A stretch of 64,000 nucleotides of DNA from a virus (Duplodnaviria > Caudoviricetes), in the IMG/VR virus record IMGVR_UViG_3300037466_003648, positions 64,001-128,000 of that record; one strand, written 5' to 3'. Below, piece after piece: positions 18,547 through 45,085 of the stretch. The first letter of the stretch is position 1, and each line of letters begins with the position of its first letter. Below the pieces are notes generated by a model that ran no database searches, was not told where the DNA came from, and was given only the letters and a program-made list of their open reading frames with translations. A program made the translations under genes and the position numbers.

Positions 18547-19215
18547 ATGAACATCCAAGAGTACCAGCTTGCCGCCGAGAAGACCTCGCCCGCCTATGGG
18601 TTGGTGGCGACGCCCTTGTCGCGTGAAGTTGACGGTGTCATGGTCCTGCACTACGGCATCGTTCCTCGGGACCAGGGTGCGAGCCGCGCTGCCTGGCGTC
18701 TGGCGAACGGCATTGCCGGGCTGGGCTCCGAGTCCTGCGAGCTGGTTGCCTTGACCCTCGACTGGGACAACCAGTTCCCGGACCTGTCGACGATCACCGC
18801 GGCCGACGAGGAAGAGCTGGTCAACCTGGTCAAGAAGGAGTTGGGGGACATCGCCTGGTACATCGCGGAGTCCGCGAGCGCCATGGGCTTCAACCTCGGC
18901 GGCATCACGAACTGGTCGAACGTCCTCGTGGACCACTGTGACTGGGGTCTCAACGCCCTGCAGGTCGCCAAGTACGCGGGTGGGGCGGCCGACTACTTCA
19001 AGAAGCTGGCGTGGCACGACAAGACCATCGACTGGGCCACGGTCGAGAGCCACTTCGCCTGTGCGCTGGGGGCCATCGCCATCCTCGCGAAGACGCTGGG
19101 CTTCACGATCGAGGACGTCCTCGACGCCAACATCGCGAAGTTGTCCGTCCGCTACGAGAAGGGCTTCTCCGGCACCACTTCGGAAGCGCGAGTCGATCTC
19201 GCCGCGGGGGCTTGA
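18547..19215 (+). CDS. MazG-like NTP pyrophosphohydrolase
   Basis: GLGSESCE, KKELGDIAWY, LDANIAKLSVRY. Confidence 0.8.
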   Translation: MNIQEYQLAAEKTSPAYGLVATPLSREVDGVMVLHYGIVPRDQGASRAAWRLANGIAGLGSESCELVALTLDWDNQFPDLSTITAADEEELVNLVKKELGDIAWYIAESASAMGFNLGGITNWSNVLVDHCDWGLNALQVAKYAGGAADYFKKLAWHDKTIDWATVESHFACALGAIAILAKTLGFTIEDVLDANIAKLSVRYEKGFSGTTSEARVDLAAGA

Positions 19216-19241
19216 CAACCAAGGGCACTTCCGCTTAGGAT
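19212..19241 (+). promoter_or_regulatory. sigma70-like promoter P1 of the RNA island
   Basis: TTGACA 19212-19217, 18 nt, TAGGAT 19236-19241. Confidence 0.65.
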
Positions 19242-19403: not shown

Positions 19404-19686
19404 AGGATCATCTTGGCTCTGGTGGACTGTGGGGACAGGGAGACCAACCGAGATGAAGTCGAAGGGGCTTTATACGCCAGTTCTGCTTCCAGCGTAGGTA
19501 GCGCGTTACCTGCCGTGAACCTCCCCCTGCCTCACTCCGCTGTCGCCTCCGGGTCGATGGCTCTCCTGTGTTGTCTTAGTAAGACACCATTGGATCGGCA
19601 CGAGTGAACTAGGGGTAGGGGGACACGGTTGTTTTGGAAGTCTCAGCTAACATTACCGCCAGTTTGCGGGCGCGCGAAGAAAGTGC

Positions 19687-19716
19687 TTGACAGATCCGTT
19701 AGGGTCATGCTACTGT
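19687..19716 (+). promoter_or_regulatory. sigma70-like promoter upstream of the tRNA array
   Basis: TTGACA 19687-19692, 18 nt, TG-n-TACTGT 19711-19716. Confidence 0.65.
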
Positions 19717-19957: not shown

Positions 19958-20030
19958 GGCGGAGTGGGCCAGCGGCTACGCCGGGAGTCTCATAAGCTCC
20001 AGATCGAGGGTTCGAGTCCCTCCTCCGCCC
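19958..20030 (+). tRNA. tRNA-Met/Ile2 (CAT), elongator type
   Basis: GGCGGAG/CTCCGCC acceptor, GGAGT-ctCATaa-GCTCC, TTCGAGT loop. Confidence 0.9.
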
Positions 20031-20061
20031 CCTAATCGTACCTTGACAACCTAACACACTA

Positions 20062-20153
20062 GGGCAGATGGTCGAGAGGCCGATGGCACCTGTTTCGAAA
20101 ACAGGAGGCCGGTGTAACAAGCCGGTCCGGGGGTTCGAATCCCTCTCTGCCCG
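20062..20153 (+). tRNA. tRNA-Ser(CGA)
   Basis: cloverleaf with long variable arm, G73. Confidence 0.92.
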
Positions 20154-20161
20154 CTTAACTT

Positions 20162-20247
20162 GGGTGGTTGGCAGAGAGGCCGATCGCGCGACTTTGCTAA
20201 AGTCGTGACCTCTATGGGGTCCGTGGGTTCGACTCCCACACCACCCG
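20162..20247 (+). tRNA. tRNA-Ser(GCT)
   Basis: cloverleaf with long variable arm, G73. Confidence 0.92.
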
Positions 20248-20250
20248 CCT

Positions 20251-20326
20251 TGGTCTGTAGCTCAACTAGCAGAGTGCTGGATTCTGACTCCAGAGGTTGC
20301 GGGTGCGAGTCCCGTCAGACCTGCCA
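20251..20326 (+). tRNA. tRNA-Gln(CTG)
   Basis: cloverleaf, encoded CCA, T-loop TGCGAGT. Confidence 0.88.
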
Positions 20327-20331
20327 TCAAT

Positions 20332-20404
20332 GGTCCTATCGTTCAGAGGCCAAGGACGCCGCATTGTCAATGCGGTAACACGGGTTCGAATCCCGTTAGG
20401 ACCG
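20332..20404 (+). tRNA. tRNA-Asp(GTC)
   Basis: cloverleaf parsed by hand. Confidence 0.92.
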
Positions 20405-20408
20405 CCTC

Positions 20409-20467
20409 GGGCATCGCCTACCCAGACCGTGGTGACGCGGCGTAAGTAGGAGCAACGGTGTCCACCA
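20409..20467 (+). ncRNA. armless Ala-identity (G3:U70, A73, CCA) minihelix-like RNA
   Basis: GGGCATCG/CGGTGTCC stem followed by ACCA; inner CCTAC/GTAGG stem; no D, T or anticodon arm. Confidence 0.55.
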
Positions 20468-20471
20468 ATAT

Positions 20472-20544
20472 GCGCGTGGAGCTGGGTTGGTTCAGCGCCG
20501 CCTTGCCAAGGCGGAGTCCACGGGTTCGATCCCCGTTACGCGCT
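20472..20544 (+). tRNA. tRNA-Gly(GCC)
   Basis: cloverleaf, U73. Confidence 0.92.
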
Positions 20545-20549
20545 CTCAT

Positions 20550-20621
20550 TGCTACGTAGCACAGCGGTAGTGCGGCGCACTGTTAATGCGAAGGTCGCTG
20601 GTTCGATCCCAGCCGTAGCAG
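20550..20621 (+). tRNA. tRNA-Asn(GTT)
   Basis: cloverleaf, G73. Confidence 0.92.
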
Positions 20622-20626
20622 CCTAT

Positions 20627-20698
20627 GCCCCAGTAGCTCAATGGCAGAGCGTCTGCCTTTGGAGCAGATGGTTGTCCGTTCAAGTCGGACCTGGGGTT
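20627..20698 (+). tRNA. tRNA-Gln(TTG)
   Basis: cloverleaf parsed by hand. Confidence 0.88.
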
Positions 20699-20709
20699 CT
20701 CAAGTTCCT

Positions 20710-20782
20710 GGTGATGTAGCTCAACAGGTAGAGCAAGCTCTTGATAAGGGCTAGGTCGGAGGTTCGAGTCCTCCCGTCACCA
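20710..20782 (+). tRNA. tRNA-Ile(GAT)
   Basis: cloverleaf, A73. Confidence 0.92.
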
Positions 20783-20790
20783 CCTCAAGA

Positions 20791-20925
20791 CGGTCGCGGG
20801 TAGCCAAATGGGTTTAAAAGTACCCGGCGGACGAGCGGCTGGTGTTCCTACGGGACCCGGTCATCCGCCTCGACGGTCTGATCTAGCGGAAGGACGCTCC
20901 GCAAGTGGGTGAGAATCCCACACCC
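20791..20925 (+). ncRNA. structured RNA ending in D-arm/T-arm-like elements
   Basis: GGGTA/TACCC; GGCGGA/TCCGCC stem with cTACGg loop; GTGGG-TGAGAAT-CCCAC T-arm-like hairpin. Confidence 0.45.
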
Positions 20926-20928
20926 TTT

Positions 20929-20999
20929 GGGTCTATAGCTCAATGGCAGAGCTGCCGACTCTTAATCGGTAGATCAGAGTTCGACTCTCTGTGGACCCA
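20929..20999 (+). tRNA. tRNA-Lys(CTT)
   Basis: cloverleaf parsed by hand. Confidence 0.92.
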
Positions 21000-21003
21000 C
21001 TCC

Positions 21004-21075
21004 GCCGGTGTGGCTCAATGGTACAGCAGTTGATTTGTAATCAACCACCTCTCGGTTCAAGTCCGGGTACCGGCA
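21004..21075 (+). tRNA. tRNA-Thr(TGT)
   Basis: cloverleaf parsed by hand. Confidence 0.92.
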
Positions 21076-21088
21076 TCGCACAGTTCTC

Positions 21089-21161
21089 GCTGGTGTAGCT
21101 CAGTTGGTAGAGCGGCTGCTTCGTAAGCAGCGGGTCACGAGTTCGATTCTTGTCACCAGCA
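21089..21161 (+). tRNA. tRNA-Thr(CGT)
   Basis: cloverleaf parsed by hand. Confidence 0.93.
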
Positions 21162-21166
21162 CCTAC

Positions 21167-21238
21167 GGTCGTCTGGCGCAACGGTGGCGCGGCTCCTTTA
21201 CACGGAGAGGGTTCAGGGTTCGAGTCCCTGGATGACCA
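21167..21238 (+). tRNA. tRNA-Val(TAC)
   Basis: cloverleaf parsed by hand. Confidence 0.92.
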
Positions 21239-21242
21239 CTAA

Positions 21243-21314
21243 CGGAATGTACGCAAGGGGTATGCGGTCTGCTTTGGGAGCAGGAAGTCGGGGGTTCAAA
21301 TCCCTCCATTCCGA
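21243..21314 (+). tRNA. tRNA-Pro(TGG)
   Basis: cloverleaf, C1:G72, A73. Confidence 0.92.
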
Positions 21315-21319
21315 CCTTT

Positions 21320-21401
21320 GGGGGTATAAGGGCTGTCGATTCGGTGAAAGCCCCATGCGGGAACGCCGAAGACCTGGGTTCAATTCCCAGTACCTCCACC
21401 A
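21320..21401 (+). ncRNA. tmRNA-like RNA reduced to the tRNA-like domain (no tag reading frame)
   Basis: GGGGGTA/TACCTCC with G3:U70, stemless D-loop ending TCGA, helix TTCGGTG/CGCCGAA, GAC linker, CTGGG-TTCAATT-CCCAG, ACCA. Confidence 0.8.
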
Positions 21402-21404
21402 ACG

Positions 21405-21541
21405 ACAGGGGCAACAAGGTGACCTGACCTTCCCCTACGCACCGCTCAAGGCCGTGTGGTTACAGGTGACGCTCGGGAGAGGACACCCGCTGATGGCTTG
21501 CCTCGCGGACACCGGGTGACAGTCGGGAATAGACCGGCACC
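21405..21541 (+). ncRNA. unassigned structured spacer RNA
   Basis: nested AGGGG/CCCCT and AAGGT/ACCTT; 3' GTCGG-GAATAGA-CCGGC hairpin. Confidence 0.3.
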
Positions 21542-21547
21542 TTTCAC

Positions 21548-21619
21548 GCCCGTTCAGCTCGTCGGTCGAGCATCTCCTTGACATGGAGAAGGCGGCTGGT
21601 TCAACTCCAGCAACGGGCT
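21548..21619 (+). tRNA. tRNA-Val(GAC)
   Basis: cloverleaf; U73 is atypical. Confidence 0.88.
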
Positions 21620-21625
21620 CTACAC

Positions 21626-21701
21626 GCCGTGACAGTCTGACTGGACAGATCTCTGGCCTTCATCCAGAGGGAAGCGGGTTCGAGTCCCGCACGCGGCACC
21701 A
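21626..21701 (+). tRNA. tRNA-Glu(TTC), atypical (C33)
   Basis: TCTGG-ccTTCat-CCAGA, encoded CCA, one acceptor mismatch. Confidence 0.75.
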
Positions 21702-21713
21702 TCAACAAATCAT

Positions 21714-21788
21714 GCCCCGGCAGACTGCTCGGCAGGGTCGCCAGGTTCTCAACCTGGAGGTAGGTGGGTTCGAATCCCCCGCGGGGTG
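21714..21788 (+). tRNA. tRNA-Glu(CTC)
   Basis: CCAGG-ttCTCaa-CCTGG; mismatches in the acceptor and T stems. Confidence 0.78.
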
Positions 21789-21795
21789 CCTTAGT

Positions 21796-21922
21796 CCTAC
21801 GTTAGCTTCAAGCCGTATCGAGAGGTGCGGACACCGCCTGGGTGACCAGGATAGTCGGTGGGTTAGAGCGACCCAGGATTCTGTGCCTGGGGAGGTTGTC
21901 GGTTCGAGTCCGGGGCGTAGGA
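21796..21922 (+). ncRNA. tRNA-like RNA with a 57-nt D-loop and 8-nt anticodon loop
   Basis: CCTACGT/GCGTAGG acceptor, TA, D-stem GCTT/GAGC, CCCAGG/CCTGGG stem, TTCGAGT loop. Confidence 0.7.
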
Positions 21923-21929
21923 TACTAAC

Positions 21930-21996
21930 GGGAGATGGCAGATCCTTCCGATAGGCTGCAGGGCGGGCAACCGCCGTAAGTGCAAAACTGCCACCC
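21930..21996 (+). ncRNA. small structured spacer RNA
   Basis: TGGCAG/CTGCCA closing stem; GGCGG-GCAA-CCGCC GNRA hairpin. Confidence 0.3.
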
Positions 21997-22002
21997 TTCA
22001 AT

Positions 22003-22075
22003 GCGGTAGTAGCTCAGTTGGCAGAGCGCGTGCCTTCCAAGCATGATGTCGCAGGTTCGAAGCCTGTCTACCGCA
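22003..22075 (+). tRNA. tRNA-Gly(TCC)
   Basis: cloverleaf parsed by hand. Confidence 0.92.
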
Positions 22076-22104
22076 CCTGGTCGTAGCAAGAGAAGGAGAT
22101 CGCC

Positions 22105-22266
22105 ATGGCACATTACAAGCGGAAGAAGCAGAAGGAACGGGTTCGTCGGACCAGCGGCTACGACACGGAGAAGGTCCGAGCCTCTTACCACGGATGGCAC
22201 GCCTTGCTGCCTGCCATCCGTCTGCAGATGATCAAGGTCAAGGAAGAGCTGCGCGACGCAGCGTAA
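22105..22266 (+). CDS. small basic protein (53 aa) inside the tRNA array
   Basis: AAGGAG SD; MAHYKRKKQKERVRR... Confidence 0.6.
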   Translation: MAHYKRKKQKERVRRTSGYDTEKVRASYHGWHALLPAIRLQMIKVKEELRDAA

Positions 22267-22271
22267 GTTAT

Positions 22272-22411
22272 GGCCGGGTAGCTCAAGAGTAGAGCGCGAG
22301 CCTGATAAGCTCGTCTTCGTTGCGTAGTGGACACTGATCAACCACGGTAGCAACGAAGCGGTTGGAGGTCGCTCCTTCAACTGATGCCGGTGACGACTCC
22401 GGCCCTGGCCG
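22272..22411 (+). ncRNA. tRNA-like RNA (GAT anticodon) with a 72-nt two-hairpin variable region
   Basis: GGCCGGG/CCTGGCC acceptor, normal D arm, CGAGC-ctGATaa-GCTCG, GCCGG-TGACGACT-CCGGC, G73. Confidence 0.72.
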
Positions 22412-22426
22412 CCCTTCACAACATCT

Positions 22427-22499
22427 GGGCCTGTAGCTCCAATGGTAGAGCAGCTCCTTTGCAAGGAAAGGGTTGGCGGTTCGAGTCCGCCCAGGTCCA
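22427..22499 (+). tRNA. tRNA-Ala(TGC)
   Basis: G3:U70, A73; weak anticodon stem. Confidence 0.85.
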
Positions 22500-22501
22500 C
22501 T

Positions 22502-22610
22502 GGTTCTCACGACGTCCCGTGAACCTTGTTCGAACTGTTGCAACAGTTCGAACAAGGGTAGATGACAGGGATCAAAGCGCTGAAAGGTAAGCCGCGTCGT
22601 GAGAACCGCC
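22502..22610 (+). ncRNA. structured RNA with a 13-bp terminal stem and 34-bp perfect palindrome
   Basis: 22502-22514 pairs with 22595-22607; palindrome at 22524-22557. Confidence 0.5.
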
Positions 22611-22613
22611 CTT

Positions 22614-22686
22614 GGTCGGGTAGCTCCAACGGTAGAGCAGGCGCCTGAAAAGTGCCGTGTTGTCGGTTCGAGTCCGACCCCGACCA
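22614..22686 (+). tRNA. tRNA-Phe(GAA)
   Basis: cloverleaf parsed by hand. Confidence 0.92.
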
Positions 22687-22703
22687 CTCTTTTGATCCAG
22701 GGG

Positions 22704-22733
22704 TTGACAGATCCCATCTATGTGTGTTAGGGT
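22704..22733 (+). promoter_or_regulatory. internal promoter of the tRNA array
   Basis: TTGACA 22704-22709, 18 nt, TG-n-TAGGGT 22728-22733. Confidence 0.7.
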
Positions 22734-22867
22734 TGTCCAACTATGAACGCCGTGATCGCCAACTTGCTGTTGCTAGCCCTGCCGGTTGCAGGGTATCGAC
22801 GCTGGCGACATTCTTCTTGCGGCGGTCGACTTACCCTGCATCTGGCGTAACCTCTTCACTCCTTTCT

Positions 22868-22950
22868 CGGGACGTGGCGAAATGGCAGATGCGCCTGGCT
22901 CAGAACCAGGTGGGCGAAAGCCCGTGGGAGTTCGACTCTCCCCGTCCCGA
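22868..22950 (+). tRNA. tRNA-Leu(CAG)
   Basis: cloverleaf with variable arm, A73. Confidence 0.92.
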
Positions 22951-22954
22951 CTCT

Positions 22955-23037
22955 GCGGATGTGGCGTAATGGCAGATGCGCACGCCTGAGTAGCGTGTGA
23001 GCGTAAGCTCGTGTGAGTTCGAGTCTCACCGTCCGCA
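22955..23037 (+). tRNA. tRNA-Leu(GAG)
   Basis: cloverleaf with variable arm. Confidence 0.92.
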
Positions 23038-23043
23038 CTACAA

Positions 23044-23126
23044 GTCGGGATGATGAAATGGCAGCCTTGGTGGTCTCAAAAACCGCTGTCCGTAAGGACG
23101 TGGGGGTTCGACTCCCCCTCCCGGCA
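23044..23126 (+). tRNA. tRNA-Leu(CAA)
   Basis: cloverleaf with variable arm. Confidence 0.88.
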
Positions 23127-23149
23127 CTCTTCCAGTACCTTGACAATCT

Positions 23150-23224
23150 GTGCCCGCAGCTCGATGGACGAGCACTCCCCTCCGAAGGGAGCGGTTGCGC
23201 GTTCGAGTCGCGCCGGGCACGCCA
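23150..23224 (+). tRNA. tRNA-Arg(CCG)
   Basis: cloverleaf, encoded CCA. Confidence 0.92.
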
Positions 23225-23225
23225 T

Positions 23226-23298
23226 GTGCGTGTAGTTCAAACGGAAGAACGTCGGCCTCCTAAGCTGACGGTTGCTGGTTCGAGTCCAGCCGCGCACT
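23226..23298 (+). tRNA. tRNA-Arg(CCT)
   Basis: cloverleaf parsed by hand. Confidence 0.9.
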
Positions 23299-23302
23299 CT
23301 AA

Positions 23303-23375
23303 GCCCGCATAGCTCAATTGGACAGAGCACTGGTCTACGAAGCCGGGGACGTAGGTTCGACTCCTACTGTGGGTG
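23303..23375 (+). tRNA. tRNA-Arg(ACG)
   Basis: cloverleaf parsed by hand. Confidence 0.9.
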
Positions 23376-23379
23376 CTGT

Positions 23380-23451
23380 GGTGACTGTAGGCTAACGGTA
23401 AGCCGCCTGATTGTGGATCAGGTGATGCGGGTTCGATCCCCGTCAGTCACA
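23380..23451 (+). tRNA. tRNA-His(GTG)
   Basis: cloverleaf with encoded G-1; A73 rather than the usual bacterial C73. Confidence 0.9.
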
Positions 23452-23456
23452 CCTAT

Positions 23457-23537
23457 GCCAGTATGGGTGAGTAGCAATACCGGCTGCCTGTAAAGCAGCT
23501 CCCTCTGGGTTCCCTGGTGCAAGTCCAGGTGCTGGCA
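23457..23537 (+). tRNA. tRNA-Tyr(GTA)
   Basis: cloverleaf with variable arm; T-loop TGCAAGT. Confidence 0.88.
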
Positions 23538-23543
23538 CTCCAT

Positions 23544-23614
23544 CTACCGGTAGCCAAGTAGTAAGGTAGCGGTCTGCAAAACCGCCAGCGTGGGTGCGAT
23601 TCCCACCCGGTAGT
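23544..23614 (+). tRNA. tRNA-Cys(GCA)
   Basis: cloverleaf, U73; T-loop TGCGATT. Confidence 0.88.
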
Positions 23615-23618
23615 CTCT

Positions 23619-23690
23619 GCGTCGTAAAGATTACGGTAGTCGGCTGGTCTCCAAAACCAGCAGCGGTGGGTTCGACTCCCCCACGATGCG
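23619..23690 (+). tRNA. tRNA-Trp(CCA)
   Basis: cloverleaf, G73. Confidence 0.88.
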
Positions 23691-23697
23691 CTCTCTT

Positions 23698-23781
23698 GGT
23701 TGGTAGGGTTCAGTGGTGAGCACCACCGTCGGAAGCGGTGGCCGGGTGTCACAGCCTTCGGTTCGACTCCGATGCCAACCG
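23698..23781 (+). tRNA. tRNA-Ser(GGA), 8/4 architecture
   Basis: 8-bp acceptor GGTTGGTA/TGCCAACC, 4-bp T stem TCGG/CCGA, variable arm, G73. Confidence 0.75.
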
Positions 23782-23791
23782 CCTCATCCCC

Positions 23792-23821
23792 TTGCACAAG
23801 CTCCTATGGATCGGGTACAGT
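23792..23821 (+). promoter_or_regulatory. sigma70-like promoter
   Basis: TTGCAC 23792-23797, 18 nt, TACAGT 23816-23821. Confidence 0.6.
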
Positions 23822-23849
23822 AGTGCCATAATCCATAGGAGCTTTTGCT

Positions 23850-42571: not shown

Positions 42572-42997
42572 GTGGACAAGATCACCGCCCCGTTCACCGA
42601 TGAGCAGGTGCGTGCGCTCAACGAGTACCAACACAGCGGCCTCTTCCACGAGTACACCTGTGGCAACGACAGCCGCCACCGCGTGTTGGTTGCGTCCACC
42701 GAGGGTTGGTCCTGCCCCGACTGCACCTACACGCAGAACTGGGCGCACGCCTCCATGGCCGTGCCGTTGACATCGGAGCAGAAGCGCCAGGCGCTCGCCA
42801 TGGGTGGACAGGTTTCCGTGCCGGACTTGGCAATCCGATACAACGACAACGGCACCCGCGACCTCGTCTCCGAAGAGTTGGGGTTGGAACTCAAGAACTT
42901 CAAAGTAGATTCGTTCAGTTTCGGTGCAACCACTGGTCGCCATGTTGTCGCCGAGTCCTGGCAAGGTGTCGCCCAACCCGATAAGGAGAACCCATGA
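42572..42997 (+). CDS. hypothetical protein with Cys motifs
   Basis: FHEYTC...WSCPDC; AAGGAG SD. Confidence 0.7.
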   Translation: MDKITAPFTDEQVRALNEYQHSGLFHEYTCGNDSRHRVLVASTEGWSCPDCTYTQNWAHASMAVPLTSEQKRQALAMGGQVSVPDLAIRYNDNGTRDLVSEELGLELKNFKVDSFSFGATTGRHVVAESWQGVAQPDKENP

Positions 42998-43125
42998 TCC
43001 GCTTGATCGCATCCGTCATCGTACCCGCTACGATCGCAGCCTACCTGGTACCTCAACAACCAGGATCGTTGATCCTTTCTATCACGGGTACGGTCGTCAT
43101 GCTCGCCCTCTGGCCCAGCAAGTAG
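42994..43125 (+). CDS. small membrane peptide (43 aa)
   Basis: AAGGAG SD, ATGA overlap, two hydrophobic stretches. Confidence 0.5.
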   Translation: MIRLIASVIVPATIAAYLVPQQPGSLILSITGTVVMLALWPSK

Positions 43126-43136
43126 AAGGAGAACCC

Positions 43137-44393
43137 GTGACAACTCCTCCCATCCTGGGCGACGTGCCCACCATCTCGAAGTCCGACAAGGGCGAGCTGG
43201 CCGCCAAGACCACCACCCTCGCACTGGAGAACCGCCCCAAGAAGTGGTCCCAGTTGGTCGGCCAACCCATTCCGGTGACGGTGCTCACGAACTCGATCAA
43301 GCTGGGTGACATCAAGCCCGGCTACGTGTTCGACGGCATCACCGGCTGTGGCAAGTCGTCGGCTGCGTACCTGGTCGCCAAGCGCCTCAACTGCGATAAC
43401 CCGGACCTGGTAGCCCAGGATCCCTGTGGTGACTGCCGGTCGTGTCGTACCATCGACAAGGGCACCAGCCCCGATGTCAAGTTCGTCGATGGTGCCAGCG
43501 ATCGCAGCGTGGCCTTCGTGCGCGAAACGCTGAAGCCGTTCCTCTCGACCGCGCCGATGGGCAAGTACCGCGTCGCCATCATCGACGAGGCGCACCTGTA
43601 TGGCAAGGATGCGATCAGCGCCTTCCTCACCCTGCTGGAAAACATGCCGCGCTTCACCGGCAAGTCCGTGGTCATCCTGACCACCACGGAGAGCGAGAAG
43701 ATGGACCCGGCGGTGATGAACCGCTGCATGAACTTGCACTTCGCCTCCATCCCCAACGACATGTTGGCGGAGCAGATGGCCGCGTACACCGGCGAGGACG
43801 TCGCTGCATTGCGCATCCTGGCCGAGGAAGCAGGCAACTCCTTCCGTTCGATGTGGTCCTACATCGAGGTCTGGCAGCACCTGGGCGAGCCGCTGACCGA
43901 AGCCGTGGTCATGAAGCTGATCGGGGGCGTAAGCCTGGCCGAGCGGCACCGCTTGTGGGGCGACCTCACCAGCGGCAAGGTGGACAAGATCGGCGAGCGC
44001 TGGCGCGGTTGGCTCCAGGGTGGTGCGCGTGCGAGTGTCGTGGGCGCGCTGCTCCTGCGGGACCTGATTGGCGTTGCCGCGAAGTGTCCCGACCGCACGA
44101 CGTGGCACGATCCCATGCGCCTCCTGGCGGGTGCGCAGCAGCAAGGCTCAGATTCCGCCTGGCTGCCAGCGCTATACCTGATGGTGGGGCTGCCACTGGA
44201 CGTCCAAGTAAGCCACCGGCAGGAGCCAGCAGAAGGGCAGCCCCATCTTTCGCAACCCACCGTGCGCCACCCCGCCGGGCGGTTGTCCCCACCCGAAGGT
44301 ACACCAGCAGTGGCTGGGGTGGGACTCACCAGAACGAACAACACCGTTGAGATTGCTCCAGTTCACGACCGCCTGTTGTTCTTTGGTGCGTAA
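43137..44393 (+). CDS. dnaX: DNA polymerase III gamma/tau (clamp loader ATPase)
   Basis: RPKKWSQLVGQ, GITGCGKSS, PCGDCRSC, IIDEAH, SRC-like NRC. Confidence 0.9.
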   Translation: MTTPPILGDVPTISKSDKGELAAKTTTLALENRPKKWSQLVGQPIPVTVLTNSIKLGDIKPGYVFDGITGCGKSSAAYLVAKRLNCDNPDLVAQDPCGDCRSCRTIDKGTSPDVKFVDGASDRSVAFVRETLKPFLSTAPMGKYRVAIIDEAHLYGKDAISAFLTLLENMPRFTGKSVVILTTTESEKMDPAVMNRCMNLHFASIPNDMLAEQMAAYTGEDVAALRILAEEAGNSFRSMWSYIEVWQHLGEPLTEAVVMKLIGGVSLAERHRLWGDLTSGKVDKIGERWRGWLQGGARASVVGALLLRDLIGVAAKCPDRTTWHDPMRLLAGAQQQGSDSAWLPALYLMVGLPLDVQVSHRQEPAEGQPHLSQPTVRHPAGRLSPPEGTPAVAGVGLTRTNNTVEIAPVHDRLLFFGA

Positions 44394-44397
44394 GGGG

Positions 44398-44426
44398 TTG
44401 ACTTCGTACCTCGTATCGTGGAGAAT
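44398..44426 (+). promoter_or_regulatory. sigma70-like promoter
   Basis: TTGACT 44398-44403, 17 nt, TG-n-GAGAAT 44421-44426. Confidence 0.5.
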
Positions 44427-44461
44427 GGGATCGCTCCCATCCTGAAGTACGAGGTACGTTC

Positions 44462-44719
44462 GTGGCAAGCCTTCAGACCCTGCTCACCGCCTGGATGACC
44501 AACGCCCAGGTGGTCACCCTCACCCTCCAGAACGGCCAGGCCGTGTCGGGCGTCGTGACGGACGACGGGGCTGCGGGTGACACGATCACCATCAAGCAGG
44601 GCAACGCGCGCACCAACGTCCCGAAGTCCGCGATCTGCACGCTGCCCGATCCCAGTGACATCACCCCGGCCGTCGGCACGCCGGGCCAGGGCACCAACAG
44701 CATTCGTCTCTTGCCCTAG
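44462..44719 (+). CDS. Hfq/Sm-like protein
   Basis: LQ..L......V.L.L.NG....G (Sm1) and V.KSAICT (Sm2; E. coli YKHAIST). Confidence 0.6.
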   Translation: MASLQTLLTAWMTNAQVVTLTLQNGQAVSGVVTDDGAAGDTITIKQGNARTNVPKSAICTLPDPSDITPAVGTPGQGTNSIRLLP

Positions 44720-44728
44720 TTCGCGGCG

Positions 44729-45085
44729 ATGGCTACCTACCGTCGCCGCAAGAAGCGTGAGGCTGACAGTCTCCCGCTTCCCTGGGGTCGCGATCCACTC
44801 AAGGGTCTGCTGGGAGACACACCGCGTGTCGAAGCTGTGGTGCCTACGCGTAAGCGCACGCGCTACTACTCGCCGCTCAAGGAGCGTGGTTGGTGTCCGC
44901 GGTGCGGTGCTCAGCGTTGGTCGGTGATCCTCGATGACACCCGTTACCGAGACATGTTCCTCGCGTGCGGGCAGTGCCACGAAACCTTCAGGATGGACAT
45001 GACGCCCCTCGACTTCCAGTACGCCTGGCGTGACGGCATCCCGATGCCCAAGGAAGTCAAGCTCAAGTACCATCGGAGGCACTAG
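44729..45085 (+). CDS. Zn-ribbon protein
   Basis: CPRC...CGQC, basic N-terminus. Confidence 0.6.
   Translation: MATYRRRKKREADSLPLPWGRDPLKGLLGDTPRVEAVVPTRKRTRYYSPLKERGWCPRCGAQRWSVILDDTRYRDMFLACGQCHETFRMDMTPLDFQYAWRDGIPMPKEVKLKYHRRH

Follow-up and report, generated by a model that had tools for sequence, protein, structure and literature searches.

A tRNA island covering all 20 amino acids

The analysed window is a stretch of 64,000 nt, positions 64,001-128,000 of the record IMGVR_UViG_3300037466_003648 (Caudoviricetes), from a jumbo phage of soil and rhizosphere with a genome of 205 kb; all coordinates refer to the window and all features given with coordinates lie on the plus strand. Between 19958 and 23783, ARAGORN predicts a dense array of 32 tRNA genes with gaps of mostly 1-13 nt and with anticodons that span all 20 amino acids. 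The Rfam tRNA model backs 29 of these 32 calls: 27 reach the gathering threshold when the whole window is scanned, and Arg-ccg and Glu-ttc also exceed the gathering score once the array is scanned alone. For Glu-ctc, Ser-gga (with a weak tRNA-Sec as its sole Rfam match) and 'Leu-tag', ARAGORN is the sole support. The 'tRNA-Leu(tag)' at 21832-21921 is a mis-call, with a mismatched acceptor stem and a T stem of only 4 bp, and is better read as a piece of a 126-nt tRNA-like RNA (21795-21920, see below). The number of canonical tRNAs is thus 31 with all 20 amino acids represented, exactly as an earlier note, made from the sequence, had counted. Only three of the 31 tRNAs have an encoded CCA.

Two SigA-type promoter-like sites precede the island, one at 19212-19241 (TTGACA-18-TAGGAT) and one at 19687-19716, 270 nt 5' of the first tRNA. 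Parts of the leader (19415-19468 and 19619-19677) have 75-81% identity with the syntenic region of the relative L115. A third site at 22704-22733 (TTGACA as -35, an 18-nt spacer and TAGGGT as -10) is a likely internal promoter, based on its consensus and its conservation in strains: both hexamers are kept in the near-identical strains L101 and L104, even though the spacer differs at about nine positions. The whole 205-kb genome has eight TTGACA-N16-19-TANNNT sites, and three of these flank or fall inside the island. At its end, the island has an intrinsic terminator (23794-23848) in which a stem of 14 bp precedes a UUUU tail (z = -7.4; all folding z-scores were measured against dinucleotide shuffles), and a terminator hairpin also closes the array of the relative L113.

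Two short reading frames lie between the tRNA genes. The first (22105-22266) is a 53-codon protein gene with a basic N-terminus, a ribosome-binding site (GAAGGAGA) 5 nt upstream and a coding-like composition (GC3 of 0.76 versus GC2 of 0.39); it is an ORFan with identical copies on at least six contigs. The second belongs to a leader (22743-22850) that precedes three tRNA-Leu genes and is either a long hairpin, with moderate folding of 22743-22867 (z = -3.3), or a hydrophobic ORF of 35 codons; this ORF has no ribosome-binding site, its GC3 is 0.61 and its sole strain difference is synonymous.

A tag-less mini-tmRNA

The RNA encoded at 21320-21401 (82 nt) is a mini-tmRNA that consists of the tRNA-like domain (TLD) only and has no tag. 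Its acceptor has G3:U70, its D-loop analogue ends in UCGA and 17 nt close its helix 2a; a T arm is present and ACCA is encoded. Its identification is based on covariance models rather than on folding energy: the Rfam tmRNA model aligns end to end within the 82 nt (43.2 bits, E = 4.6e-15), and a second model, R1, built from 41 other, uncultured phage sequences with this phage left out, gives 75.4 bits (E = 1.8e-15), while no tRNA in the window exceeds 26 bits. Within the family, helix 2a and the T stem both show compensatory changes, and about 55 of 74 pattern matches in viral contigs are TLD-only. Covariance models had been suggested as a check, and they establish the RNA as a family member.

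This type of RNA is not new, as a TLD-only (CDS-less) tmRNA is already known from mycobacteriophage DS6A (tmRNA Website tmID 11587; Hudson, Lau and Williams 2014, PMC4131195; PMC11915505). Both RNAs are barely more than a tRNA-like domain with a G3:U70 acceptor, a T arm and CCA; both lack a tag reading frame and pseudoknots and both are expected to act by inhibiting host tmRNA-SmpB. The RNA described here differs in being part of a 31-tRNA array in an unrelated phage of 205 kb, and its membership is defined by the 41 members from uncultured phages rather than by direct comparison with the DS6A sequence. The earlier suggestion that RNAs of the island may inhibit ribosome rescue has a published basis for TLD-only RNAs (PMC4131195 and PMC11915505, which cite Mao et al. 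2009). Natural tmRNAs cut down to the tRNA-like domain also occur as CDS-less tmRNAs in jakobid mitochondria and plastids (PMC11915505). In contrast to the phage RNA, these are organellar and co-occur with targeted SmpB (PMC11915505), and are for this reason thought to aid rather than block rescue. Neither SmpB nor a CCA-adding enzyme was found encoded in the phage genome, and the host enzymes would therefore have to serve.

Two oversized tRNA-like RNAs and a candidate minihelix

In the 126-nt RNA at 21795-21920, the acceptor stem is perfect over 7 bp (U1:A72) and the anticodon stem of 6 bp carries an anticodon loop of 8 nt (AUUCUGUG). The T-loop of this RNA is canonical, its discriminator is U73 and its D-loop carries a folded insert of 57 nt. 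The 140-nt RNA at 22272-22411 resembles tRNA-Ile(GAU) but has a 72-nt variable region of two hairpins; it folds clearly beyond chance (z = -4.7 for 22272-22418), with none of 200 shuffles being equally stable. This Ile-like RNA misses both partners of the tRNA elbow, the GG of the D-loop and the UUC of the T-loop, the latter being non-canonical with 8 nt (UGACGACU), and its Rfam tRNA score of 24.5 bits is under the gathering score, all of which also fits a decaying pseudogene. Its discriminator is G73 in this phage and A73 in other strains (22411 G>A).

Once the inserts are removed in silico, both genes are recognised as tRNAs by ARAGORN: tRNA-Ile (Ile-gat) from the Ile-like RNA, and '???' with the four-base anticodon tctg in an 8-nt loop from the 126-nt RNA. 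Both genes could be precursors of working tRNAs, with phage enzymes excising the inserts (21809-21865 and 22314-22385) and rejoining the halves; if so, the phage would have a second tRNA-Ile(GAU) and a four-base-anticodon tRNA able to shift the reading frame. This would fit the presence in the genome of an RNA ligase of the DRB0094 family, which scores above the curated cut-off, and of a complete tRNA-Asn nested in the body of another tRNA in a second array, which would likewise need cutting and rejoining. However, we know of no bacterium or phage that splices inserts out of a D-loop or a variable loop, the inserts are far below the size of a group I intron and a search for ribozyme motifs found none. 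Moreover, the Ile-like RNA would keep its 8-nt non-canonical T-loop and a D-loop without GG, and an ordinary tRNA-Ile(GAU) is already encoded at 20710. We consider processing to working tRNAs very improbable.

The third element is a candidate alanine-type minihelix of 59 nt at 20409-20467, with an 8-bp acceptor-like stem, G3:U70, A73 and an encoded CCA; its interior is a rod that lacks D, anticodon and T arms. Folding is moderate (z = -2.2) and the TLD model has no match to it. Over the 1.3 kb of spacers, chance alone would yield about 0.06 helices of this kind, a number that was counted after the fact; the minihelix is a weaker candidate than the other RNAs and could be a chance occurrence.

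The remaining spacers and the plasticity of the island

The array has eight spacers longer than 50 nt (65, 144, 231, 41+90, 81, 349, 113 and 180 nt). Four credible tRNA-derived RNAs are found among them: the 82-nt mini-tmRNA, the 140-nt Ile-like RNA, the 126-nt RNA (moderate folding of 21791-21927, z = -2.3) and, more weakly, the 59-nt minihelix. None of the others is an RNA gene; these spacers correspond to the 53-codon gene, the promoter, a strain-variable 113-nt hairpin and three spacers without significant structure. The unassigned spacer 20785-20928 (144 nt) folds moderately (z = -1.9) and ends in a decayed T-arm-like hairpin (GUGGG-UGAGAAU-CCCAC); it has no match in Rfam or in phages apart from a weak 31-nt resemblance to a spacer of L113. 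The spacer 21402-21547 (146 nt) is featureless, with z = +0.33 and an empty Rfam scan, and the spacer 21922-22002 (81 nt) has insignificant structure (z = -1.3) and no phage match. The earlier note had counted at least eight non-canonical RNAs and had nearly every spacer folding into a closed structure; about four are credible, clear z-scores are restricted to two spacers with the others being moderate or nil, and two spacers are mainly protein gene or promoter. Its idea of tRNA mimics beside true tRNAs holds for the TLD-only tmRNA, the further alanine-type CCA helix and the two oversized RNAs.

The second clear z-score belongs to the 113-nt hairpin cassette (22501-22613, z = -7.6), which has a 13-bp closing stem and a perfect 15-bp inner hairpin. 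The cassette is missing from the near-identical strains L101 and L104 and from one contig of run X6: all three have a diverged tRNA-Phe and a 142-aa ORFan in place of the hairpin and the neighbouring tRNA-Phe. The presence of this closed structure (22502-22613) is strain-dependent. Elsewhere, strain differences preserve structure: the tRNA-Gly(GCC) of L101 has five substitutions and the structure is kept in all, and the substitutions in tRNA-Leu are structure-preserving too. Near-identical strains show just 7 changes over 2.5 kb, too few for a covariation analysis of the structures.

The island is absent from the relatives. At or near the syntenic site, two relatives with 78% DNA polymerase identity have at least six tRNAs and two tRNAs, respectively, and those with 64%, 60% and 53% identity have none; no spacer homologue was found in the sequence available from these closest relatives (53-78%). 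The undescribed system that the earlier note had suspected is thus not shown by these comparisons.

This extreme plasticity, with tRNA counts from at least six down to zero across five relatives and a hairpin and tRNA-Phe exchanged for another cassette between near-identical strains, raises the question of whether the odd elements, except for the mini-tmRNA, are functionless debris of a fast-turnover island: decaying duplicates, insertion scars and swapped cassettes that would be transcribed and then degraded as processing by-products. The 126-nt RNA and tRNA-Phe have the same T-arm sequence over 18 nt, pointing to a recent duplication, and the lost elbow nucleotides of the Ile-like RNA, the decayed T arm ending spacer 20785-20928 and the three spacers without significant fold are all in agreement with decay. 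On the other hand, in both oversized RNAs the 7-bp acceptor stem is still perfect and the anticodon stem intact, random decay would not yield inserts that fold far beyond shuffles (z = -4.7), and the minihelix fills its spacer exactly and ends in CCA, which so few of the tRNAs encode. There is also only one substitution between strains in the spacers of 20407-22426 versus 11 in 1.4 kb of flanking coding DNA, although this contrast is weak as divergence is patchy. Debris is a possible but rather unlikely origin of these elements; the locus as a whole is probably best explained as an accessory tRNA island of the 205-kb jumbo phage.

Comparison with other phages and proposed function

Stable RNAs of unknown function are present in the tRNA cluster of T4 (species 1 and 2, rnaC and rnaD) and in the tRNA region of T5. 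Like the island RNAs, these are small, structured non-tRNA RNAs amid phage tRNA genes and presumably use the same processing enzymes; compared by description, the island RNAs differ in being clearly tRNA-derived, with acceptor, T or anticodon arms kept. HDV-like theta ribozymes are another class of structured RNA that lies between the genes of phage tRNA clusters, adjoining tRNAs (Kienbeck et al. 2024, PMC10879173), and the DRB0094 RNA ligase, enriched in theta-ribozyme phages (PMC10879173), is encoded here too. However, none of the tRNA 3' ends is the start of an HDV-like fold, the Rfam scan has none either, and the matches to a relaxed HDV-like descriptor were equalled by inactive-site controls.

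An Hfq-like gene had been proposed to belong to the same system. The protein encoded at 44462-44719 has indeed an Hfq (Sm-like) fold (AF2 pLDDT 76.8; top Foldseek matches almost all Hfq), with no match in a Pfam search. The link to the island is contradicted by its position: the gene is about 20 kb from the tRNA array and, in three distant relatives, lies directly 3' of the clamp-loader gene, within the replication module and not behind a tRNA array.

Some phage tRNA arrays replace host tRNAs that are cut by defence nucleases, for example the tRNA-Lys of T5 against PARIS (PMC11464382). Arrays of the T5 type (PMC11464382) are, like the island, large tRNA sets and are expressed early, as the island would be; the canonical tRNAs of the island could serve the same purpose. 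Unlike the island, these cases involve decodable tRNAs with altered anticodon loops and no oversized or armless mimics.

We propose that host RNA polymerase probably reads the island from the SigA-type promoters at 19212, 19687 and 22704, that transcription would stop at the strong terminator near 23848 and that host tRNA-processing enzymes would cut the transcript into units. The two oversized RNAs (Ile-GAU-like, and Gln-like with its 8-nt anticodon loop) and the 59-nt minihelix, all tRNA-derived, most likely act as mimics that do not decode but occupy proteins able to bind tRNA. The 31 tRNAs would sustain phage translation without reliance on the host tRNA pool. The 82-nt RNA is probably charged with alanine and most likely binds host SmpB; this would titrate or block trans-translation and phage proteins would escape degradation tagging.

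A tRNA array with anticodons for all 20 amino acids

The source record has a length of 205,180 bp, carries direct terminal repeats and has a GC content of about 62%. Near-identical DNA is present in soil and rhizosphere metagenomes from nine studies; a close cultured phage was found neither with the DNA polymerase, which is at most 27% identical to that of any cultured phage, nor by blastn. Near and distant blastn searches of cultured-phage DNA with the tRNA array and three of its spacers returned tRNA fragments or nothing, and none of the spacers matches an Rfam family.

ARAGORN predicts 32 tRNA genes on the plus strand between positions 19958 and 23783, with anticodons for all 20 amino acids. 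The Rfam tRNA model backs 29 of these predictions: 27 in a scan of the whole window at the gathering threshold and two that scored above the gathering score when only the array was scanned. One prediction, tRNA-Leu(tag) at 21832-21921, is a mis-call, as its acceptor and anticodon stems contain mismatches and its T stem has 4 bp; subtracting it leaves 31 canonical tRNAs, the number given in the earlier note. Neighbouring tRNAs are mostly 1-13 nt apart. CCA is encoded by only three of them, and most have N73-C(C)-U instead.

The near-identical strain L101 (99.6% identity) has five substitutions in tRNA-Gly(GCC), all of which keep the cloverleaf: a G.U pair is turned into G-C, the nucleotides at 26 and 44 are exchanged jointly, and wobble pairs arise from two changes. 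Two irregular pairs, C.A in tRNA-Ala and U.G in tRNA-Leu(caa), are repaired in the same strain. Because these substitutions preserve or repair structure, the tRNAs of the island are under selection. In the window, tRNA-Ala(UGC) (22427-22500) has two mismatches in the anticodon stem, G27.A43 and C28.A42; in other strains C28-G42 is restored by 22468 A>G.

The 10-mer ACCTTGACAA has only three copies in the genome, and two of these (20040-20049 and 23137-23146) precede tRNA-Ser(cga) and tRNA-Arg(ccg) by 5-13 nt; neither of these two copies is followed by a matching -10 hexamer.

A TLD-only tmRNA between the tRNAs

The 82 nucleotides at 21320-21401 align to the Rfam tmRNA model (RF00023) from its first to its last position (1-374), with 310 central positions deleted and replaced by only 17 nt that part the two strands of helix 2a. 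What remains is a mini-tmRNA with a 7-bp acceptor stem containing G3:U70 (GGGGGUA : UACCUCC) followed by ACCA (A73 and CCA), a tmRNA-type D-loop analogue (..GG..UCGA), helix 2a, a GAC linker and the T arm GGGUUCRAnUCCC; an mRNA-like domain, a tag reading frame and pseudoknots are absent. The score of 43.2 bits (E = 4.6e-15) just misses the gathering score of 47, and ARAGORN calls no tmRNA. The possibility that the RNA is one piece of a two-piece tmRNA was rejected, as the permuted-tmRNA models reach only 16-20 bits (E = 0.16-0.39).

In IMG/VR, 74 loci matched a pattern search, and some 55 of them are RNAs of the same kind with lengths of 67-92 nt; the others are tRNA-Ala genes, pieces of ordinary tmRNAs and a few other tRNA calls. 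An alignment of 41 members has many compensatory changes in helix 2a and the T stem. The covariance model built from these 41 phage sequences, with the window sequence left out, gives the mini-tmRNA 75.4 bits (E = 1.8e-15), compared to 26.4 bits for the best tRNA of the window. On these sequence grounds, membership of the mini-tmRNA in the TLD-only tmRNA family is secure. A metagenome pattern scan for its lineage-specific acceptor gave no matches.

TLD-only tmRNAs are a type already known from mycobacteriophage DS6A, which was classed as 'TLD only' by Hudson, Lau and Williams (PMC4131195). Strong tmRNA inhibition, perhaps through titration of SmpB, was noted for such a molecule (PMC4131195) and the inhibition is restated in a database paper of 2025 (PMC11915505). 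By analogy to the DS6A-type RNA, the mini-tmRNA may be charged by AlaRS, bind SmpB and inhibit trans-translation (PMC4131195, PMC11915505). The phage genome encodes no SmpB and no CCA-adding enzyme of its own.

Three further tRNA-derived RNAs

Two oversized RNAs of the island have perfect 7-bp acceptor stems. The Ile-like RNA (22272-22411) has a 4-bp D stem, a 5-bp anticodon stem with the loop CUGAUAA and thus the Ile anticodon GAU, a variable region of 72 nt with two hairpins, and a T stem that closes the 8-nt loop UGACGACU. Its fold is much more stable than those of shuffled sequences (z = -4.7). Both partners of the tRNA elbow (G18G19 / U54U55C56) are missing: the D-loop (AAGAGUA) lacks GG and the T-loop lacks UUC, and the RF00005 score is 24.5 bits, with a gathering score of 29. 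ARAGORN calls it tRNA-Ile(gat), but only once the 72-nt insert is removed in silico. The discriminator is G in the window and A in other strains, and a metagenome pattern scan for this RNA gave no matches.

The second oversized RNA (126 nt, 21795-21920) has U1:A72 in its acceptor stem, a canonical T-loop, a folded insert of 57 nt in the D-loop and a 6-bp anticodon stem that closes a loop of 8 nt, AUUCUGUG. With this abnormal D arm and an anticodon loop longer than the usual 7 nt, it is not a canonical tRNA, and it is not matched by the Rfam tRNA model; once the insert is removed in silico, ARAGORN assigns it the four-base anticodon tctg. Over 18 nt its T arm is identical to the one in tRNA-Phe, and its anticodon arm is similar to that of the tRNA-Gln(CUG) which the phage itself encodes. 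That both oversized RNAs derive from tRNAs is clear, and neither of them can be a normal tRNA.

The third RNA is a minihelix of 59 nt (20409-20467) that takes up the spacer from tRNA-Asp to tRNA-Gly. Its 8-bp helix contains G3:U70 and continues into A and CCA, and its interior is rod-like (z = -2.2). Genome-wide, its pattern occurs 11 times versus 6-15 times in shuffled sequences; from the genome-wide count, about 0.06 occurrences are expected in the 1.3 kb of spacers. Compared with the TLD-only family, it has no T arm, no match to the 41-sequence model at E <= 10 and no match to the Rfam tmRNA model. The minihelix is a plausible but unproven candidate for an Ala-type acceptor RNA.

Spacers that are promoters or small genes, and strain variation

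Several of the supposed spacer 'RNA' regions are promoters or small genes. The region 22105-22266 is a gene of 53 codons that has a strong ribosome-binding site and a GC3 of the coding type; its product is an ORFan. It opens (22105-22140) with a basic motif, MAHYKRKKQKE, that is similar to the start (44729-44764) of an ORF beginning with MATYRRRKKRE. In the latter ORF a zinc-ribbon-like CxxC...CxxC is present as well, and the genome has no third start of this type. At 22704-22733 there is a promoter with -35 and -10 hexamers that are unchanged in strains L101 and L104, while about nine positions of the 18-nt spacer between them differ. Consensus promoter sites are rare, with only eight in the genome, and three of these eight flank the island or fall within it.

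The region 22502-22613 folds into a very stable hairpin (z = -7.6) that is absent from some strains: in L101, L104 and a contig of a further sequencing run, the hairpin and the adjoining tRNA-Phe are swapped for a cassette made up of 4 nt and a diverged tRNA-Phe(GAA) that is followed by an ORFan of 142 aa (L101:5398-5942 and L104:752-1296, in place of window 22502-22699). Contigs from four DNA runs contained mostly tRNAs of other organisms, plus a strain without 22502-22615. Judged from these strain sequences, the hairpin is dispensable. The idea that the 142-aa ORFan is a homing endonuclease was not supported, as it belongs to no Pfam or PHROG family.

Among the remaining spacers, 20785-20928 has a moderate fold (z = -1.9) and a decayed T-arm at its end; its resemblance to a 145-nt spacer of the relative L113 is restricted to 31 T-arm-like nucleotides and is unconvincing. 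The regions 21402-21547 and 21922-22002 have no folding signal. A MITE-like family was rejected, since no spacer element recurs elsewhere in the genome.

A second array and an RNA ligase

Outside the window, a second small array has a complete tRNA-Asn ending in CCA that is nested in the anticodon loop of another tRNA (genome 11794-11929; L105:795-930), whose body surrounds it as 5' CTGGAAG...GCGC and 3' GCGCG...CTTCCAG. Rfam identifies the inner tRNA-Asn (63.6 bits) and one other tRNA nearby. Far from both arrays, ARAGORN calls an 89-nt tRNA-Ala(ggc) at genome 164968-165056, which is doubtful because it has no Rfam tRNA match at E <= 1.

The genome also encodes an RNA ligase of the DRB0094 family (genome 44642-45712, 159.9 bits at a cut-off of 151), a family that is 140-fold enriched in phages with tRNA-adjacent theta ribozymes (Kienbeck et al., PMC10879173). 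Both this ligase and the nested tRNA count in favour of a scenario in which the insert-bearing tRNA-like RNAs are cut and rejoined, to which we assign a low probability. HDV-like theta ribozymes, defined as nested double pseudoknots (P1, P1.1, P2, P3 and the catalytic C in J4/2) at most 5 nt from a tRNA 3' end, were searched for with self-made strict and relaxed descriptors rather than with the authors' RNArobo file: none was found at the tRNA 3' ends, and no spacer matches an Rfam ribozyme. The descriptor matches fall inside tRNA bodies and occur just as often when the catalytic position is A, G or U.

The island in related phages

A search with the DNA polymerase identified relatives at 78, 78, 64, 60 and 53% identity. 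The gene order around the island is conserved: a DUF2201 protein, a MazG-like protein, small genes, a PAAR protein, the DNA polymerase, the beta clamp, the clamp loader and an Hfq-like protein. Searches with proteins encoded beside or inside the island (the Metallophos, MazG-like, 143-aa, 101-aa and 53-aa proteins) returned only the phage itself or relatives with at most 35% identity.

The tRNA content at the syntenic site varies. No tRNA is present in about 40 kb at or near this site in L110 and L107 (60%), at or near it in L114 (64%) or in 72 kb of the relative at 53%. L115 (78%) has two tRNAs there, Ser-gct and Thr-tgt, and L113 (78%) has at least six and a terminator at the array end, on a contig that is cut off inside the array. 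Conservation of the island's upstream leader reaches 75-81% in L115. Long spacers also occur in the small array of L113, together with a probable ORF of small size that has a ribosome-binding site. Neither L113 nor L115 has a counterpart of any spacer element. Given the variable tRNA content and the lack of spacer counterparts in these two relatives, the island is a plastic, lineage-specific insertion. The earlier note had named a lack of conservation as something that would speak against its tRNA-mimic reading, and this lack applies to everything but the mini-tmRNA, whose family is kept across unrelated phages.

L113 also has a 75-nt tRNA (L113:346-420) with the Leu anticodon UAG on a body with a short variable arm (class I size). 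The 955-aa DNA polymerase of L114 (L114:10001-12868) contains an intein (PF14890) that is absent from the polymerase of this phage.

The Hfq-like gene

The ORF at 44462-44719 encodes a protein of 85 aa. Its AF2 model, based on an alignment of nine sequences, has a pLDDT of 76.8 (the single-sequence model, with 47, was too poor for use) and shows the Sm fold, in which five bent strands come after an N-terminal helix. Almost all of the best 50 Foldseek matches in the PDB are Hfq, with target TM-scores of 0.67-0.83, an rmsd of 1.1-1.8 Å and E-values of only about 6e-3. Pfam Hfq has no match at E <= 1, either to this protein or across the genome, and a few homologues match weakly (Hfq E = 0.022, Hfq_1 E = 0.0012). 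Q is kept in the N-terminal helix, and PK(A/S)AI is found at the position of Hfq's YKHAI. Going by the model, the protein thus has an Hfq fold.

As in this phage, the gene immediately after the clamp-loader gene (DNA_pol3_delta2) in L107, L108 and L114 is a small homologue. This gene pair of four distantly related phages (window 42924-44719, L107:8812-10195, L108:1545-3035 and L114:20375-21832) suggests that the Sm-like protein is tied to the replication module. Two of the three relatives have no tRNA nearby; L108 is a contig of only 3 kb. Because the adjacency to the clamp loader is kept, also in two relatives without nearby tRNAs, the conserved partner of the Hfq-like gene is the replication module and not the island, which contradicts the suggestion that the gene belongs to the same system as the tRNA array.

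Possible functions of the island

Phage tRNA arrays are nowadays seen as responses to host attacks on translation. The interpretation that the data support best is that of an accessory tRNA island, active early, which would have two roles: supplying a full decoding set and, at the same time, co-delivering a known type of rescue inhibitor. The minihelix, the 126-nt RNA and the Ile-like RNA are real features of the sequence and are well supported structurally; they may be either mimics or by-products of rapid island turnover.

In a more far-reaching interpretation, at least four different non-decoding mimics from a single early tRNA transcript would act jointly as decoys and form a dedicated RNA-based counter-defence toolkit: the TLD-only tmRNA, an armless Ala-accepting minihelix, a chassis that combines a D-loop domain with a four-base-anticodon loop, and a second, Ile-type chassis whose extra arm is double. 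The second array would add nested and insert-bearing tRNAs, and the targets would be host SmpB, AlaRS, anticodon nucleases or other tRNA-sensing defences. We consider this unlikely and prefer the accessory island that combines a decoding set with one rescue inhibitor.

The annotation of the island is corrected at three points: the wrong ARAGORN tRNA call, the mini-tmRNA that ARAGORN missed and that lies under the Rfam gathering score, and the 'RNA' spacers that are promoters or small genes. Practical value is limited, as the phage is uncultured. TLD-only tmRNAs look like a common yet unannotated phage tool against ribosome rescue, and the island would be a compact test bed with one well-supported candidate rescue inhibitor beside three further tRNA-derived RNAs. 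If these three prove to be stable and bound by host factors, the RNA-decoy idea would reach beyond tmRNA.
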